Part shown: positions 4,344 to 12,307 of the stretch, piece by piece
Layout: each line of letters begins with the position of its first letter
Position numbering within the stretch: the first letter of the stretch is position 1
Program-made: the position numbers and the translations under genes
Origin: a virus
Taxonomy: Duplodnaviria > Heunggongvirae > Uroviricota > Caudoviricetes
Length of the DNA stretch: 12,326 bases
Virus record (IMG/VR): IMGVR_UViG_2693429700_000004
Reading direction: 5' to 3' (one strand)
The notes under the pieces: generated by a model
Databases searched by the model: none
What the model was told of the DNA's origin: nothing
The model's input: the letters and a program-made list of their open reading frames with translations, nothing else

Positions 4344-4736
4344 ATGGCAAAAGTATTTACACAAGAAGAGCGGGAAGAAGTGAAGGCGCGCATTGTGGAA
4401 TTCGTGCGCCTGAGCGGACGAGAAACTTTTCGACAACTGGCAGATAAAACGGGTGTCAGTAAGACCGCTATTCGTCGTTTATCTGGTGCGCTTGCGGCCA
4501 GTGGTGATGTCTGGCTCTCTGGTTGCGGGGTATTTCCATCAGAGCAGGCGTATCGCGTATGGCGTAAGACACCGGAGAAGGCTGCTGACCCGACACTGAT
4601 TCGAAAGTTACCTGACGGAGAAATACGTCGTTACAACAGACGGCAGAACATAATTTGTCGTGAGTGCCGCCAGAGCGAAGTTATGCAGCGTGTGCTGGCG
4701 TTCTATCGGGGAAACTTTCAGGAGGTGATGTTGTGA
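4344..4736 (+). CDS. hypothetical phage protein with putative HTH
   Basis: ATG at 4344 with GGAGG RBS 5 nt upstream (the track start at 4329 is TTG). HTH-like TFRQLADKTGVSKTAIRRL; C-terminal CRECRQ. Confidence 0.5.
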   Translation: MAKVFTQEEREEVKARIVEFVRLSGRETFRQLADKTGVSKTAIRRLSGALAASGDVWLSGCGVFPSEQAYRVWRKTPEKAADPTLIRKLPDGEIRRYNRRQNIICRECRQSEVMQRVLAFYRGNFQEVML

Positions 4737-5206
4737 GTGAGTCGGCTACCATTCTCGACATGTGCTGTGGCAGTCGCATGTTCTGGTTTGATAAGAATGA
4801 CGAACGGGCGATATTTAGCGATATCAGAAAAGAAGAGCACACATTGTGTGATGGACGACGCCTGATTATCAGTCCTGACCTGATAGCAGATTTTCGAGCA
4901 TTACCATTTGCAGACGCATCGTTTCCGGTTGTTGTATTCGACCCTCCGCATCTTGAGCGTGTTGGTGATAACGCCTGGATGGGAAAGAAATATGGACGGC
5001 TGAATAAAGATACCTGGCGAGATGATTTGCGGCAGGGATTTAAAGAAGCCTTTCGTGTGTTGTGCCCACGCGGCGTTCTGATTTTTAAATGGAATGAAAC
5101 GCAAATACCTGTTCGCCAGATATTGGTACTGACCGACAGAAAACCTGTTATCGGTCAACGAACAGGAAAAAACGATAAAACCCACTGGATTATTTTTATG
5201 AAATAG
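4733..5206 (+). CDS. small SAM-dependent methyltransferase, probable phage orphan DNA N6-adenine/N4-cytosine MTase
   Basis: Motif I-like ILDMCCGSR, then catalytic motif IV DPPH (VVVFDPPHL) about 65 residues later. Start is either GTG 4733 (GGAGGTGA RBS, overlaps upstream stop) or ATG 4763. About 150-158 aa with no partner restriction gene. Confidence 0.6.
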   Translation: MSESATILDMCCGSRMFWFDKNDERAIFSDIRKEEHTLCDGRRLIISPDLIADFRALPFADASFPVVVFDPPHLERVGDNAWMGKKYGRLNKDTWRDDLRQGFKEAFRVLCPRGVLIFKWNETQIPVRQILVLTDRKPVIGQRTGKNDKTHWIIFMK

Positions 5207-5454
5207 GCATCCAGTGAGTAGGTTCGTAAGGTTACAGATGCGTATATCTGAATAATTAAATTCAGTTCTGTAAATAAAATTTAATCCTTAACCGGAGGGA
5301 TTCCTGCACCCTCAGAACATCAGGAGACCGCCCGAAAGGGCGGTAATGAAAAATGGCTGAATGAACCAAATGGCTACAAAACACGATTACCGGAATTGAA
5401 ACGGTAGTAGACGATAAATCGTTTGTATGTGATGAAATAGTATTCAAAATCGAT

Positions 5455-5820
5455 GTGGTTAAAAACGTACTTACCGCATTTAAAGTCGCGCTGGTATCGC
5501 TGGAAGCCGAACCGGTGACATGGCGATATCGCTACGTGAGAAAAGGCGTTACGAACTTTCAGGAGAAGCCGTGGGTTGGTGACTGGAAATATGTACCGAC
5601 AAAAGAGGATTGCAACGACAGGCCGAACTATGAAATTCAGGCGTTATTCACGGCCCAGCCTGTGCCACTGACACCCGAAGGATTGATTAAAGCGGTGCGC
5701 TTCTATGAACAGGTTAAGAGTGAAAATCCGCCAGTCGAAACCGGAGCATGGAAAGACGCTGTTGACTGGGTGCTCAAAGAGGCTTGTCAGGCTGTAAACA
5801 TTGGCATCAAAGGAGAGTGA
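5455..5820 (+). CDS. hypothetical protein (121 aa)
   Basis: ORF with GTG start at 5455 (in-frame stop at 5437 limits extension) and a weak RBS. Protein-like composition; stop sits 1 nt before the next gene's start. Confidence 0.45.
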   Translation: MVKNVLTAFKVALVSLEAEPVTWRYRYVRKGVTNFQEKPWVGDWKYVPTKEDCNDRPNYEIQALFTAQPVPLTPEGLIKAVRFYEQVKSENPPVETGAWKDAVDWVLKEACQAVNIGIKGE

Positions 5821-5821
5821 G

Positions 5822-6013
5822 ATGAACGGACAAATCTCAATTGTTCGACCGGGAGCATGTGACGATTGCGAGATACGAATGATTATTCGTCTGGCGATGG
5901 GGAAAACAATAACTGCTCTCATTACTCCAGAAAATCTCGCATTAGCATTAACAGGAAAGTCAGACCTGCCAGTAGAGCTAAAGCTGCGAAATGTTGAGAT
6001 TAAGGTGAAATAG
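5822..6013 (+). CDS. hypothetical small protein (63 aa)
   Basis: ATG 5822 preceded by AAAGGAGAG RBS (MNGQISIVRPGACDDCEIRM...); tightly packed between neighbours. Confidence 0.45.
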   Translation: MNGQISIVRPGACDDCEIRMIIRLAMGKTITALITPENLALALTGKSDLPVELKLRNVEIKVK

Positions 6014-6015
6014 CT

Positions 6016-7437
6016 ATGACCACTATTACCAAAGAGCGACTGCTGACAATCAAGCAGTGGCGCGAAACATACGGACCTGGTAGCAACGTTGTACTGCCAG
6101 CAGAAGAAGCGGAAGAACTGGCACGGATTGCACTGGCATCATTGGAAGCAGATCCAGTTAAACGAGTTAACTCAGATCAGATGCACCGAGTCTGCTTAGA
6201 AGCTAATCGCTATTTAGATAAATATGACGCGATGGCGAAAGAGGTAAATAAGTTGCTTGGACGCATCGCCCCGCCAGCGCCAGTATTTAACGGCGAATAC
6301 GGTGACGCATATCAGGGCGCTCGTGAAGACCTGTCCATCTGGAAACGGCGAGCGCTTGAAGCTGATGAGCACGTTCGGCGACTGGAGCAAATCAATGACC
6401 ACATGGTGAAAGAGGCGCAGGGAGAATCACGCATGGGCGAGCCTGTAATACGTGAGCCAGCACCGGTAGTGCCTGAAGAAGCAACTCCGGAAAACGTAGA
6501 AATGCTCTCTGGCTATGTTTCAACGTACAAATTAACCGATAGCGAGCGCGATATTGCTGCCGAAATATGGAACGCCTGCCGCGCCGCCATGCTTCAGTCA
6601 GGAAACTTTCGGGAAAACAAGAATTCGTCAACCAATAATTTTCGGGAAATCGAGGAAACGTCAACCAACTATCCGGCAATTCCTAGTGAGGTGTTGTCCG
6701 CAATCCTGAAGGTTGCCAGGATTCGTGCCGATTTCGATGATTTTGACGGTGACAGGCGAGGTATCGGTGATTGTCTGGATGAGGCTGAGCAAGAGCTTAT
6801 CGTTACCATTAACAAATATGCCAGTCAGTTGGCAGCAGAACCGATAGCGACTAATGACGTTCGAGAGCAGCAGACAGCCGTTCCGCCAGTTCCGGAAATA
6901 CAGGCTGATGTCGCGCAAGCAATTGAAAATCTCAAGCAGAAGCTAGTGGAATGTAATCGCTATAACTACTGCGCAGATGCAGTTAAAGGCGTAGAGGATG
7001 CCTGCCGTGCTGTTAGCTATAGCCAAGCCGACAATCAACCAGCATCTGGCAACCAGGCTGCCGAATCCAATCGCGGTAATGAGTGGACCGGCAATCCTGA
7101 TATTGATAACGCCATCATCATGCTCGACCGCATAGATACGCTGGAAAATTGCGATGATGACCGTATTGAGGCTGTTAAGGCTGTTTTGCGTAGACTGGCT
7201 GGCAACTATCCGGTAACTCCGGATGGTTGGATAAGCTGTAGTGAGCGAATGCCGAATACCAAAACAGCCGTTCTTGTTGCCGTGGAGTTTGACAGGAAAG
7301 GTGACTGGCGAATGAAATGGGCTACTTACATCCCGGGGCATCCTGACGCTAATGATGGGTGGATAATTCCTGGTGCGTCGTGGAAACCGTCACACTGGAT
7401 GCCGCTACCAGAACCGCCGCAGGAGGTGCGCCAATGA
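6016..7437 (+). CDS. 473-aa phage protein with C-terminal DUF551-type domain (Ead/Ea22-like region)
   Basis: C-terminus GWISCSERMPNTKTAVLVAVEF...WKPSHWMPLPEPP looks like the DUF551 signature as I recall it. AAGGTGA RBS. Internal imperfect tandem DNA repeat at 6604-6670 encodes NFRENKNSSTN / NFREIEETSTN. Confidence 0.65.
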   Translation: MTTITKERLLTIKQWRETYGPGSNVVLPAEEAEELARIALASLEADPVKRVNSDQMHRVCLEANRYLDKYDAMAKEVNKLLGRIAPPAPVFNGEYGDAYQGAREDLSIWKRRALEADEHVRRLEQINDHMVKEAQGESRMGEPVIREPAPVVPEEATPENVEMLSGYVSTYKLTDSERDIAAEIWNACRAAMLQSGNFRENKNSSTNNFREIEETSTNYPAIPSEVLSAILKVARIRADFDDFDGDRRGIGDCLDEAEQELIVTINKYASQLAAEPIATNDVREQQTAVPPVPEIQADVAQAIENLKQKLVECNRYNYCADAVKGVEDACRAVSYSQADNQPASGNQAAESNRGNEWTGNPDIDNAIIMLDRIDTLENCDDDRIEAVKAVLRRLAGNYPVTPDGWISCSERMPNTKTAVLVAVEFDRKGDWRMKWATYIPGHPDANDGWIIPGASWKPSHWMPLPEPPQEVRQ

Positions 7438-7517
7438 TCTGGCCTGAAGCCTTTGCAATTACAGGCGTTGCTATAGCTATTGATTTTTTAGTATATGTTA
7501 TTTGTCGGTGGGGGTAA
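7434..7517 (+). CDS. unannotated mini-ORF, 27-aa hydrophobic peptide (candidate small membrane protein)
   Basis: ATG overlaps the upstream stop (ATGA) and AGGAGG lies 8 nt upstream; MIWPEAFAITGVAIAIDFLVYVICRWG is one predicted TM helix. Not in the ORF track. Confidence 0.35.
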   Translation: MIWPEAFAITGVAIAIDFLVYVICRWG

Positions 7518-7551
7518 AACGTTCGCCGGGATTCACACCAAAGGAGGGAAT

Positions 7552-7656
7552 ATGTCGGATGATATTTCACTGGCAATGGAAGGTGCGCTGGCTGTTATTG
7601 CTGTTGTGGGCGTTTACTGCCTGGTTGTGTTTTTGATGGATCGACTAGGGAACTGA
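7552..7656 (+). CDS. unannotated mini-ORF, 34-aa hydrophobic peptide (candidate small membrane protein)
   Basis: AAAGGAGGG RBS 6 nt upstream of ATG 7552; MSDDISLAMEGALAVIAVVGVYCLVVFLMDRLGN has an acidic N-terminus then a TM helix. Followed by a perfect 22-bp palindrome at 7665-7686. Confidence 0.4.
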   Translation: MSDDISLAMEGALAVIAVVGVYCLVVFLMDRLGN

Positions 7657-7789
7657 ATTCATTACGATATGGGAATTCCCATATCGGGTAAAAACGGTTT
7701 GCGGTAAAGCGAGAGTTAAGTAGAATTGCTGCGGGTGCTTGAGGCTATCTGCCTCGGGCATGCCACCGTAAGGCAGACAGAGAAAAGCC

Positions 7790-7890
7790 CCAGTTAACAT
7801 TACGCGTCCGGCAAGACGCTTAACATTAATCTGAGGCCATATCTATGCTCTACACACGTAGGTTAGCCTCTTACGGACCGAAAGGTCAAG
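7790..7890 (-). ncRNA. sok: predicted Sok-like antisense RNA region (coordinates approximate)
   Basis: Inferred from hok/mok architecture. Minus-strand TTGACC (complement of 7885-7890) is a possible -35; the mok leader contains hairpins and a direct repeat TTAACATTA. Boundaries are not resolved from sequence. Confidence 0.3.
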
Positions 7891-8051
7891 GAGAAGCAGG
7901 CTATGAAGCAGCAAAAGGCGATGTTAATCGCCCTGATCGTCATCTGTTTAACCGTCATAGTGACGGCACTGGTAACGAGGAAAGACCTCTGCGAGGTACG
8001 AATCCGAACCGGTCAGACGGAGGTCGCTGTCTTCGTAGACTACGAATCTGA
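7845..8051 (+). CDS. mok: Mok-like overlapping reading frame (modulation of killing) of the hok locus
   Basis: 68-aa ORF starting upstream of hok and overlapping it in another frame, the canonical hok/mok arrangement. Confidence 0.55.
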   Translation: MLYTRRLASYGPKGQGEAGYEAAKGDVNRPDRHLFNRHSDGTGNEERPLRGTNPNRSDGGRCLRRLRI

Positions 8052-8058
8052 GAAGTAA
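7903..8058 (+). CDS. hok: Hok/Gef-family type I toxin (HokD/RelF-like), 51 aa
   Basis: Translation MKQQKAMLIALIVICLTVIVTALVTRKDLCEVRIRTGQTEVAVFVDYESEK matches the Hok family as I recall it, nearly identical to HokD/RelF except the C-terminal tail. AAGGAGAAG RBS. Not in the ORF track. Confidence 0.85.
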   Translation: MKQQKAMLIALIVICLTVIVTALVTRKDLCEVRIRTGQTEVAVFVDYESEK

Positions 8059-10058: not shown

Positions 10059-10084
10059 CTCAATCTGTTATCCGGGGCTATATT
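10055..10084 (+). promoter_or_regulatory. pR'-like late promoter
   Basis: TTGACT (10055-10060), 18-bp spacer, TATATT (10079-10084); overlaps the stop codon of the Q-like gene. Confidence 0.45.
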
Positions 10085-10146
10085 CCTCACGCGCCAGCAA
10101 AATCTGGCGTCGGGATTAGGAACCCCGGATAGAGACCGCGACAGAC

Positions 10147-10170
10147 ACACGCCGCGAGCGTGTTTTTTAT
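10147..10170 (+). terminator. tR'-like intrinsic terminator about 80 nt downstream of the late promoter
   Basis: ACACGC-CGCGA-GCGTGT hairpin followed by TTTTTTATT. Confidence 0.55.
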
Positions 10171-10331
10171 TGTCGTATGCACGCGCACATCTGAATTATG
10201 GTGGGGCGTATGGGGGAGCTGAAAAGCTCGCCGGTTGGTTTCCCGGTAGTTCCTAACCCTGTACGTCTCACCACCCGATGATTAGGAACCTGACGGTGGT
10301 GATGGTTTAGAAACCACCAGAGGGCGTCATT

Positions 10332-10913
10332 ATGACAACTCAAATTTCTGTTGAAACTCTCTCCCCGATCACCCATAACCAGATTCCTGTTATTACCACC
10401 GAACTTTTGGCGCAGTTGTACGGTGCTGGAGTTAAGAACATTCAAAATAACTACGCCAGAAATGCTGAGCGCTTTATTGAAGGAAAGCATTTTTTCAAAG
10501 TGGCTGGCGATGCCCTGAAAAATTTGCGGGTAGCTTTAAACTACTCACAAAATTTGCAACCATCTTTAAGAGGGTTACAAATTTCCCCGAAAGCCCGCTC
10601 CCTCATCCTCTGGACAGAACGCGGAGCAGCCCGTCATGCCAAAATGCTGGAAACCGATCAGGCGTGGGATGTGTTCGAAAAGCTGGAAGACTGCTATTTC
10701 AGACAAAAGGATCCGTCAGCGCCAGTTTCATGCCAGAAAAGTTACGACACGCGAGTTCTCTGTTATCAGAGAGGCGGTGTCACTGTTTCCACAATTCAGT
10801 TACGGGATGATGATATTGTTATTTCCCTTGAGTCATGGCTGGAACTGGCGAGAGCCAATGGTTGGTTTGTTGTTCGCAGAGATAAACTGGTGGAAAGGTT
10901 GATGCAGCTTTAA
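10332..10913 (+). CDS. ORF6N-domain (antirepressor-like) protein
   Basis: 193-aa ORF with AGAGGG RBS; N-terminal segment TELLAQLYGAGVKNIQNNYARNAERFIEGKHFFKV resembles the ORF6N/antirepressor N-domain as I recall it. Confidence 0.55.
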   Translation: MTTQISVETLSPITHNQIPVITTELLAQLYGAGVKNIQNNYARNAERFIEGKHFFKVAGDALKNLRVALNYSQNLQPSLRGLQISPKARSLILWTERGAARHAKMLETDQAWDVFEKLEDCYFRQKDPSAPVSCQKSYDTRVLCYQRGGVTVSTIQLRDDDIVISLESWLELARANGWFVVRRDKLVERLMQL

Positions 10914-11034: not shown

Positions 11035-11156
11035 TGTCCGTAATATACAGCAGCGCAATAAATTCGCTGGTGGTTATTAATACCGTTCTTTCAGCTTGCT
11101 GGCTTTTTCGACAAGAGTTATTGGTATGTCACGTTAACCGGAAAGGGTAAAAAGAC

Positions 11157-12231: not shown

Positions 12232-12307
12232 GGCCCTTTAGCTCAGTGGTGAGAGCGAGCGACTCATAATCGCCAGGTCGCTGGTTCAAATCCAGCAAGG
12301 GCCACCA
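12232..12307 (+). tRNA. tRNA with CAU anticodon, ileX/ileY-like (tRNA-Ile2, lysidine) and diverged from the host copies; tRNA-Met not formally excluded
   Basis: 76-nt cloverleaf: acceptor stem GGCCCTT/AAGGGCC, D-loop AGCTCAGTGG, anticodon loop CTCATAA, T-arm GGTTCAAATCC, encoded CCA end. Resembles E. coli ileX/ileY as I recall it, with compensatory stem changes. Confidence 0.85.

Follow-up and report, generated by a model that had tools for sequence, protein, structure and literature searches.

Why should an operon whose genes otherwise lie almost end to end be interrupted by a gap of 248 bp? The question is posed by positions 5207-5454 of a stretch of viral DNA of 12,326 nucleotides (IMG/VR record IMGVR_UViG_2693429700_000004), here called the window, to whose first letter all coordinates refer; features are on the + strand unless stated otherwise. 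The window is a Rac-like lambdoid prophage of Escherichia coli, 100% identical to strain Z1323CEC0019, and the gap lies in the rightward early operon of the prophage, in which a cro-like helix-turn-helix gene, ydaT, replication genes, DUF1627, DUF977 and the gene for a S-adenosylmethionine (SAM)-dependent methyltransferase (4733-5206) precede the gap, after which come a "hypothetical protein" annotated from GTG 5455 and more small genes. Most neighbouring genes are spaced by 0-22 nt, and by comparison the 248-bp spacer is unusual. The original prediction, made from the letters of the window, saw a non-coding gap with stacked hairpins and offered a structured RNA, a processing or attenuation site, or a cis-regulatory leader as its explanation.

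The gap is two things: the 5' end of a decapitated gene (5353-5454) and a composite gene junction (5207-5352). Of this division, and of its descriptive parts taken as one claim (coding extension, private nonsense codon, modular anatomy, spacing rule and reshuffled flanks), we are highly confident. The overall explanation preferred for the gap, in which a hairpin of the junction would bridge the Shine-Dalgarno (SD) sequence and the start codon of the gene that follows, is placed slightly on the favourable side of even, a rating that reflects the mechanism proposed for this hairpin module.

A gene start inside the gap

Translation from ATG 5353 reads MAE*TKWLQNTITGIE...IDVVKNVL... and is in frame with the annotated GTG 5455. 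The fourth codon is a TGA (5362-5364, the G being at 5363) in the window, as against TTA in the related loci L002 and L005 and in phage mEp460, and the frame is open in the relatives. In phage mEp460 the full coding sequence of 155 amino acids is annotated from the ATG equivalent to 5353, and a mosaic variant of 65 amino acids is annotated from the same ATG in one O157:H7 genome. The phrog_660 family profile spans the extension, aligning with the rebuilt protein from residue 1 and covering residues 1-154, and the codons of the N-terminus, M[A/T]ELTK, vary synonymously among relatives (GCT/GCA, ACT/ACA, ACC/ACA, TTA/CTA). Positions 5353-5454 are the 5' end of the downstream gene, the real start of which is ATG 5353; if intact, this member of the phrog_660 family would comprise 155 codons (5353-5820), of which the window's annotation retains only the 121 amino acids from GTG 5455.

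The 61-nt segment 5340-5400 is present in 298 complete E. coli genomes and is matched at 100% only in the source strain, the other 297 differing by at least one base. Because the source strain alone matches the segment exactly, and the relatives carry TTA, the TGA (1 of the 298 genomes carrying the segment) is therefore a private nonsense mutation, or else a sequencing error. After such a stop, ORF finders would restart at the next in-frame GTG, 5455, which lacks a proper ribosome-binding site. Thus, the GTG start with a poor ribosome-binding site that had been remarked on is an artefact of the nonsense mutation, since the TGA at codon 4 cuts off the true N-terminus. In the source strain the downstream gene has probably lost its function, or yields at best a little of a truncated product. 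The short gene model also occurs elsewhere: positions 1856-2221 of L005 (E. coli O157:H7 493/89) correspond to 5455-5820 of the window, and there PGAP gives the GTG-started WP_050575132.1 of 121 amino acids although the open reading frame (ORF) is open from the upstream ATG (155 amino acids), which looks like a propagated start-site miscall. The lesson for annotation is that an apparent structured non-coding gap can arise from a single private nonsense codon, and that the short model has spread to a strain with an open ORF.

The 248-bp non-coding gap is thereby reduced to a true spacer of 146 nt (5207-5352), the remaining 102 nt (~41%) being coding and in frame with the downstream gene. By the same token, the absence of a convincing ORF holds in that no + strand ORF of at least 20 amino acids started by ATG, GTG or TTG lies between the methyltransferase stop and GTG 5455, but the 3' part of the interval is interrupted coding sequence. 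The duplicated AAATGGCT that had been noted is present, at 5351-5358 and 5368-5375; its first copy is the start codon region and its second the codons K-W-L, and because it is not conserved in relatives it is treated as coincidence. Other reading frames were considered and rejected. A 61-amino acid ORF started by TTG on the minus strand (5262-5447) shares part of its positions with the + strand coding extension and runs across sites at which copies differ by 2-nt indels, and the start codons of two tiny + strand ORFs, at ATG 5238 (MRISE*) and ATG 5346 (MKNG*), are not conserved in relatives. The spacer holds no conserved small ORF on either strand.

Anatomy and folding of the junction

Within the spacer the core of the element is taken as 5248-5352 (~105 nt), and it is composed of two modules. 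The first, J1 (5248-5298), begins with a weak palindrome, hairpin 1 (CTGAAT-AATTAA-ATTCAG, 5248-5265), that contains stop codons in three frames (TGA 5249-5251, TAA 5253-5255 and TAA 5257-5259); an AU-rich stretch follows (5266-5293), for which the alignment shows two or three versions of the sequence, copies differing by 2-nt indels, and the module ends in an SD motif, SD1 (GGAGG, 5294-5298). The second, J2 (5322-5352), consists of SD2 (AGGAG, 5322-5326), which abuts the 5' base of hairpin 3 (ACCGCCC-GAAA-GGGCGGT, 5327-5344), the hairpin itself, with a 7-bp stem including six G-C pairs and a GNRA tetraloop, and an A-rich spacer of 8 nt (AATGAAAA, 5345-5352), scored in the tabulation of spacers as free of SD motifs, that leads to the real start ATG 5353. 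The two modules are joined in the window by 23 nt, and SD1 is orphaned.

Relatives show the modules apart. In L020, a 70-amino acid gene has its ATG 7 nt past J1 (hairpin 1, the AU-rich stretch and ...AATCCTTAACCGGAGG), and the stop codon of this gene is followed in turn by TGTC-AGGAGG-hairpin-AATGAAAA-GTG, the GTG being the start of the M/V-TELTK gene; L060 likewise has J1 ending in GGAGG, then 7 nt and the ATG of the 70-amino acid gene. The GGAGG of J1 thus appears to be a normal ribosome-binding site for the 70-amino acid gene in some relatives, left without its gene in the window. In 32 of 131 copies J2 is found by itself, at a distance of 10 nt from a preceding stop codon. In the IMG/VR contigs L017, L035, L073 and L081, two J2 hairpins lie ~1064 nt apart in one operon, one in the long form (J1 plus J2) and the other in the short form right after a stop codon. 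In typical relatives the upstream gene stops at a GAA-TAA within hairpin 1 and the next gene, of the DUF7167 family, starts 6 nt past the GC-rich hairpin (L003 and L004 have annotated upstream stops). A role of J1 as a universal three-frame stop adaptor was considered and set aside as weakly supported, nearly all the upstream genes that end in hairpin 1 using the same GAA-TAA stop. As a separate observation, a Chi octamer (GCTGGTGG) lies within the 70-amino acid gene of L020 (~1401-1613 in reverse-complement coordinates), ~60 nt before J2; in the window Chi is found at 11066 and 11382 on the + strand.

All three inverted repeats of the original prediction exist. The GAGGG/CCCTC repeat (5295-5299/5309-5313) and the ACCGCCC-GAAA-GGGCGGT stem (5327-5344), with its GAAA loop and no T-run after it, are where they were described, whereas the CTGAAT/ATTCAG repeat lies at 5248-5253/5260-5265, one position from the 5247-5264 given for it. 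They differ in stability. The fragment that holds the GC-rich hairpin (5316-5360, 45 nt) folds with -16.6 kcal/mol (z = -3.95), a value reached by none of 200 shuffles; hairpin 1 folds with -4.4 kcal/mol (z = -3.3), and among copies it is weak (-4.4 kcal/mol or less) and mostly includes a G-U pair. Hairpin 2 (GAGGG-N9-CCCTC, 5295-5313), in which the orphan SD1 would pair with an anti-SD-like CCCUC, is unremarkable (z = -1.1, with 28 of 200 shuffles folding as well) and, on this and on its pair counts, is given little weight. Only the GC-rich hairpin is clearly beyond chance. For the gap as a whole, comparison with shuffles gives z = -2.7 on the + strand and z = -1.7 on the minus strand.

The + strand of the gap gives a better fold than its shuffles do, and the same prophage has other small RNAs (sok, IsrK, C4); both would suit an independent small RNA gene, or else an attenuator or terminator, in the gap. 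No match was found in 5207-5454 at the Rfam gathering threshold, and a permissive search of 5100-5600 up to an E-value of 10 gave nothing credible, the best E-value in the gap with Rfam 15 and permissive filters being 2.9 and all scores far below threshold. A promoter and terminator scan of 4600-6100 placed no site within the gap, and no T-run follows any gap stem on either strand; in particular, the letters after the GC-rich stem are AATGAAAAATGG on the + strand and CTCCTGATG on the minus strand, and the terminator scan did not call the stem. Moreover, the 3' 102 nt are coding, and the minus-strand ORF of 61 amino acids overlaps coding sequence and crosses the 2-nt indels. With no significant covariation either (below), neither the attenuation site nor the discrete structured RNA is supported, and a separate small RNA or attenuator is very unlikely.

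Intercistronic stabilizer hairpins are well known in E. coli operons, the repetitive extragenic palindromic (REP) elements in malE-malF being an example, and messenger RNA processing or stability could provide another role for the junction. RNase E would cut in the AU-rich stretch (5266-5293), hairpin 1 would shield the upstream 3' end and hairpins 2 and 3 the downstream 5' end, and the cistrons would be unevenly expressed. An AU-rich single-stranded stretch between hairpins and a very stable GC-rich hairpin without a terminator T-run are what such a site would have. But hairpin 1 is weak, and J2 on its own, without the AU-rich stretch and 10 nt past a stop codon, in 32 of the 131 copies points to a role of the hairpin with no need of J1; the strict distance of 5-8 nt between hairpin and ATG is left unexplained, and processing is judged improbable as the explanation of the gap. 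There remains the cis-regulatory leader, the best supported of the three options first offered, in that the only robust structure (5327-5344) sits between an SD and the real start ATG 5353.

Spacing rule and a candidate split ribosome-binding site

The evidence for J2 as a translation signal lies in its spacing. An ORF of at least 30 codons starts 5-8 nt past the stem in 117 of the 131 exact hairpin copies, and with up to 3 mismatches allowed the same spacing is found in 154 of 182 copies. None of the 154 spacers contains a GGAG, GAGG or AGGA motif, while six copies with a 10-nt spacer carry a GGAG of their own within it. The downstream ORFs belong to unrelated families (DUF7167, phrog_1832, phrog_660 and a few others), the profiles of which start at those start codons. 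In practically every copy, AGGAG or AGGAGG stands directly against the 5' base of the stem, and SD2 does not vary at all among 36 copies. SD2 matches the anti-SD better than any other site in the region (-7.4 to -10.3 kcal/mol); in the window and in short-form contexts it is predicted to be unpaired, whereas the 3' arm of hairpin 3 has a pairing probability of ~1 in the predicted fold. The linear distance from GGAG to ATG is 23-26 nt, which is beyond the functional range, and looping out of the 18-nt hairpin would reduce it to 5-8 nt, within the ~5-11 nt that a stable hairpin should restore.

A covariance model of J2 was set aside, 27 nt being too little information, and a custom scan for the architecture SD-hairpin-spacer-ATG was used in its place. 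In 1.6 Mb of related loci the architecture was present in 36 of 2521 start-like ATG contexts and absent from all 2409 internal ones. Thirty-five of the 36 are members of the present hairpin family, and the only match with a hairpin of other sequence (L166) looks spurious.

Two precedents come from phage T4. The initiation regions of genes 38 and 25 are split, and their SD-to-start spacings of 22 and 27 nt are reduced by a hairpin to 5 and 11 nt, respectively; mutations that destabilize the hairpins lower initiation (PMC3014915). By analogy, hairpin 3 would stay always folded, looping out its 18 nt, and the folding would bring the SD from 23-26 nt to an effective 5-8 nt, allowing the ribosome to initiate at the ATG. 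Whether J2 works in vivo like the split ribosome-binding sites of T4 genes 38 and 25, with the hairpin bridging SD and AUG, is in our estimate an evenly balanced question. A literature search for split ribosome-binding sites returned only the T4 work and generic studies.

The variation among copies bears on whether an RNA structure has been selected. All six core pairs are intact in 76 of the 80 copies that were retrieved by an anchor lying outside the hairpin. Counted in distinct variants, the stem shows twelve C>T changes in the 5' arm, which give G-U pairs in the + strand RNA, versus zero G>A changes in the 3' arm, where the product would be C-A; in one copy a G-C pair is replaced by A-U, A-C intermediates being present in relatives. 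The loop variant seen most often, GGCA, stays within the GNRA class; TAAA and AAAA also occur. This pattern of change fits a sense-strand RNA hairpin and would argue against a DNA palindrome or an antisense RNA. Diversity is also lower in the element centre (pi 0-0.07) than in the adjoining DUF7167 coding sequence (~0.13), a comparison that is affected by the sampling of copies.

The same hairpin could instead be a translational operator, with hairpin 3 or the two GGA sites bound by a phage or host RNA-binding protein, or with the hairpin hiding its SD-like 3' arm, so that the genes headed by J2 would be co-repressed. Near-identical hairpins do stand before unrelated genes, sometimes twice in an operon ~1064 nt apart; the GNRA loop is conserved, the change from GAAA to GGCA keeping its class, the SD-like 3' arm (GGGCGGU) is fully paired, and the GCCC...GGGC core of the stem resembles lambda boxB. 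The loop variants TAAA and AAAA tell against an operator, as does the position deep in the operon, which is unlike that of nut sites; no candidate binding protein was identified, and an SD2 abutting the stem is better explained by bridging. An operator is more doubtful still than processing.

Spread, reshuffled flanks and known systems

The junction is widespread. The gap sequence finds matches in 2723 of 5426 complete E. coli genomes, at up to nine places per genome, and most of the matches cover only gap positions 42-145 (5248-5351). Genomes of O157:H7 (Sakai, EDL933) typically have about three such places apiece, and the E. coli copies that come with flanks number 5080. The ends of the BLAST alignments cluster, with starts at gap position 40-42 or 73 and ends at 138, 145 or 164, and the annotated neighbours vary between copies (DUF7167, ead/Ea22-like, DUF551, DUF4014 and methyltransferases). 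In the 145 copies with enough flanking sequence, seven upstream and 16 downstream clusters occur in 37 combinations, as one would expect where a boundary sequence forms a mosaic joint: the genes on both sides are non-homologous, and homology breaks off at the edges of the element. Thus, 5248-5352 is best read, from these comparisons, as a recombination-shuffled intercistronic junction in the accessory-gene arrays of E. coli and Shigella lambdoid prophages. Since many unrelated genes have this junction between them, it would also be a homology patch at which genes are exchanged by recombination. Of the prophages of K-12 MG1655, Rac, Qin, DLP12 and CPS-53 are without both modules, and a literature search with sub-strings of the element returned no paper containing the sequence.

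Upstream of the core, the first 41 nt of the gap (5207-5247) are a trailer that travels with the methyltransferase module. This trailer continues into the junction element in the E. coli matches that cover gap positions 1-145, for which the features listed are DUF7167 in nine rows and a SAM-dependent methyltransferase in one, and it is included in a match to PhiR42_1 spanning 5100-5351. It contains the 3' arm (5209-5219) of an 11-nt inverted repeat (5180-5190/5209-5219, 10 of 11 complementary, 18 nt apart, no T-run after it) that straddles the methyltransferase stop (5204-5206). The gene so ended (4733-5206) encodes a class I SAM-dependent (DNA) methyltransferase according to the PGAP annotation of the identical genome and to Pfam and PHROG matches; it matches just positions 50-201 of the 229-position phrog_954 profile and may be truncated at both ends, and the orthologue in one O157:H7 genome has an internal stop.

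The reticulate flanks and the clustering of breakpoints at the element edges would be accounted for by a pure recombination linker, a boundary sequence kept and spread only by prophage recombination, whose hairpins have no function as RNA and whose start spacing is inherited with the module. In addition, exact-pattern matches were found only in Escherichia and Shigella, significant covariation is lacking, hairpin 2 is no better than chance, and boundary sequences are established in the literature through the modular-evolution model of lambdoid phages, cited in PMC3233612. On the other side, the downstream genes bring no SD of their own and so depend on something in J2 for initiation, changes in the stem are overwhelmingly pair-preserving and asymmetric between the strands, which homology of DNA alone does not predict, and the diversity of the centre (pi 0-0.07) is below that of DUF7167 coding sequence (~0.13), subject to the sampling of copies noted above. 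A linker and nothing besides is possible, with the balance clearly against it; it is compatible with, rather than exclusive of, the bridging explanation. Processing or stability and operator roles are less likely than a linker, and they too are not mutually exclusive with bridging.

Joining the two lines of argument, J2 may be a portable hairpin-bridged ribosome-binding cassette, which would be the first outside the T-even phages, selected because unrelated accessory genes rely on it and hence serving as a homology patch for gene swaps. This combined proposal is tentative and stands well below the bridging mechanism in probability, if a little above the bare linker; its extension to a single RNA-binding factor that would control every J2-headed gene through the shared hairpin is less likely again.

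Several observations weigh against hairpin bridging and its selection. Formal covariation analysis of 72 aligned copies found one double-sided change and no measure above shuffles; the copies, at ~85-100% identity, are too alike for the test. The excess of C>T changes could be partly strand-biased deamination, inflated by shared ancestry. Conservation of the element may reflect recent spread rather than selection, because a search of 185,579 species genomes for an exact 29-nt pattern taken from its centre, near hairpin 2, gave matches in E. coli and Shigella flexneri alone. The 3' arm of hairpin 3, GGGCGGU, although paired, is itself weakly SD-like (anti-SD match of -7.1 kcal/mol), and a reading of the hairpin as sequestering is thus possible; the CCCUC of G-variant copies can take SD2 as its partner in place of SD1; and the six copies that have their own SD past the hairpin indicate that the hairpin can persist where bridging is unneeded. 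Finally, homologues of DUF7167 were examined in three Klebsiella phages, in two of which no spacer exists and the gene overlaps its upstream neighbour; the third has its nearest annotated upstream gene ending ~256 nt from the homologue. Because two of the three lack the spacer, the DUF7167 gene family would therefore not need the cassette, which appears to be a feature of Escherichia prophages.

None of these results overturns current understanding. About half of the complete E. coli genomes carry an unannotated junction between different accessory genes. If hairpin bridging by J2 is true, a mechanism known only from T4 genes 38 and 25 would extend to temperate phages, and there would be a concrete functional reason for the conservation of boundary sequences, tying translation signals to prophage mosaicism, with the translation signal as the physical cause of a mosaic boundary sequence. 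J2 would then also be a natural, compact and context-insulating intercistronic part for engineering.

Other features of the prophage deserve record. A sok antitoxin RNA (Rfam, 105 bits; 7733-7905, +) adjoins a Hok/Gef toxin gene (~7903-8058), forming a hok/sok type I toxin-antitoxin locus. Rfam matches to c4-a1b1 (10078-10131), IsrK (10091-10168) and C4 antisense RNA (10194-10278), all on the + strand, lie upstream of an ORF for an ORF6N-domain protein (10332-10913), and 10078-10278 together with that gene may be read as a P1/P7-style C4/antirepressor-type immunity module in a lambdoid prophage. A 473-amino acid ORF occupies 6016-7437 (+), where PGAP has only DUF551 pseudogene fragments and one DUF551 protein of 62 amino acids; no tandem repeat was detected in 5800-7600. 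A tRNA-Met gene (anticodon CAT, 12232-12307, +) marks the right end of the window.

How does the junction compare with known systems? The intrinsic terminator shares with hairpin 3 a GC-rich 7-bp stem-loop, but neither strand has a T/U run at hairpin 3, which the terminator scan does not call and which lies inside a ribosome-binding region. Stabilizing hairpins of the REP type are likewise stable extragenic palindromes between cistrons of one operon and number many per genome, whereas the present element is prophage-restricted, not known to be related to them in sequence, and at a fixed distance from the next start codon. The lambda boxB/nut hairpin (GCCCUGAAAAAGGGC) has a similar GC-rich GCCC/GGGC core and a GNRA-type loop; boxB has a pentaloop, J2 a tetraloop, and nut sites lie just after pL and pR, whereas J2 stands deep in the operon right before start codons, a location that would argue against a lambda-type nut site.

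The closest functional parallel is with T4 genes 38 and 25. In both systems the linear interval between SD and AUG is too long (23-26 nt for J2, as against 22 and 27 nt for the T4 genes) and contains a stable hairpin, the folding of which shortens the spacing to 5 and 11 nt in T4 and would shorten it to 5-8 nt in J2. The two have no sequence relationship, and they belong to different settings, temperate lambdoid prophages as opposed to T-even phages; each T4 hairpin is that of one gene, whereas here one cassette would serve several unrelated genes and move by recombination. The T4 cases are experimentally proven, whereas for J2 we infer bridging from sequence. The boundary or linker sequences of lambdoid phages offer the closest parallel in distribution. 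Phage HK620, with which the boundary-sequence concept has been illustrated, is not among the 21 phage records that match the element. Like those boundary sequences, the junction is a short conserved sequence between genes, with non-homologous flanks and with homology ending at its edges; unlike them, it has a defined internal anatomy of stops, SD, hairpin and start.

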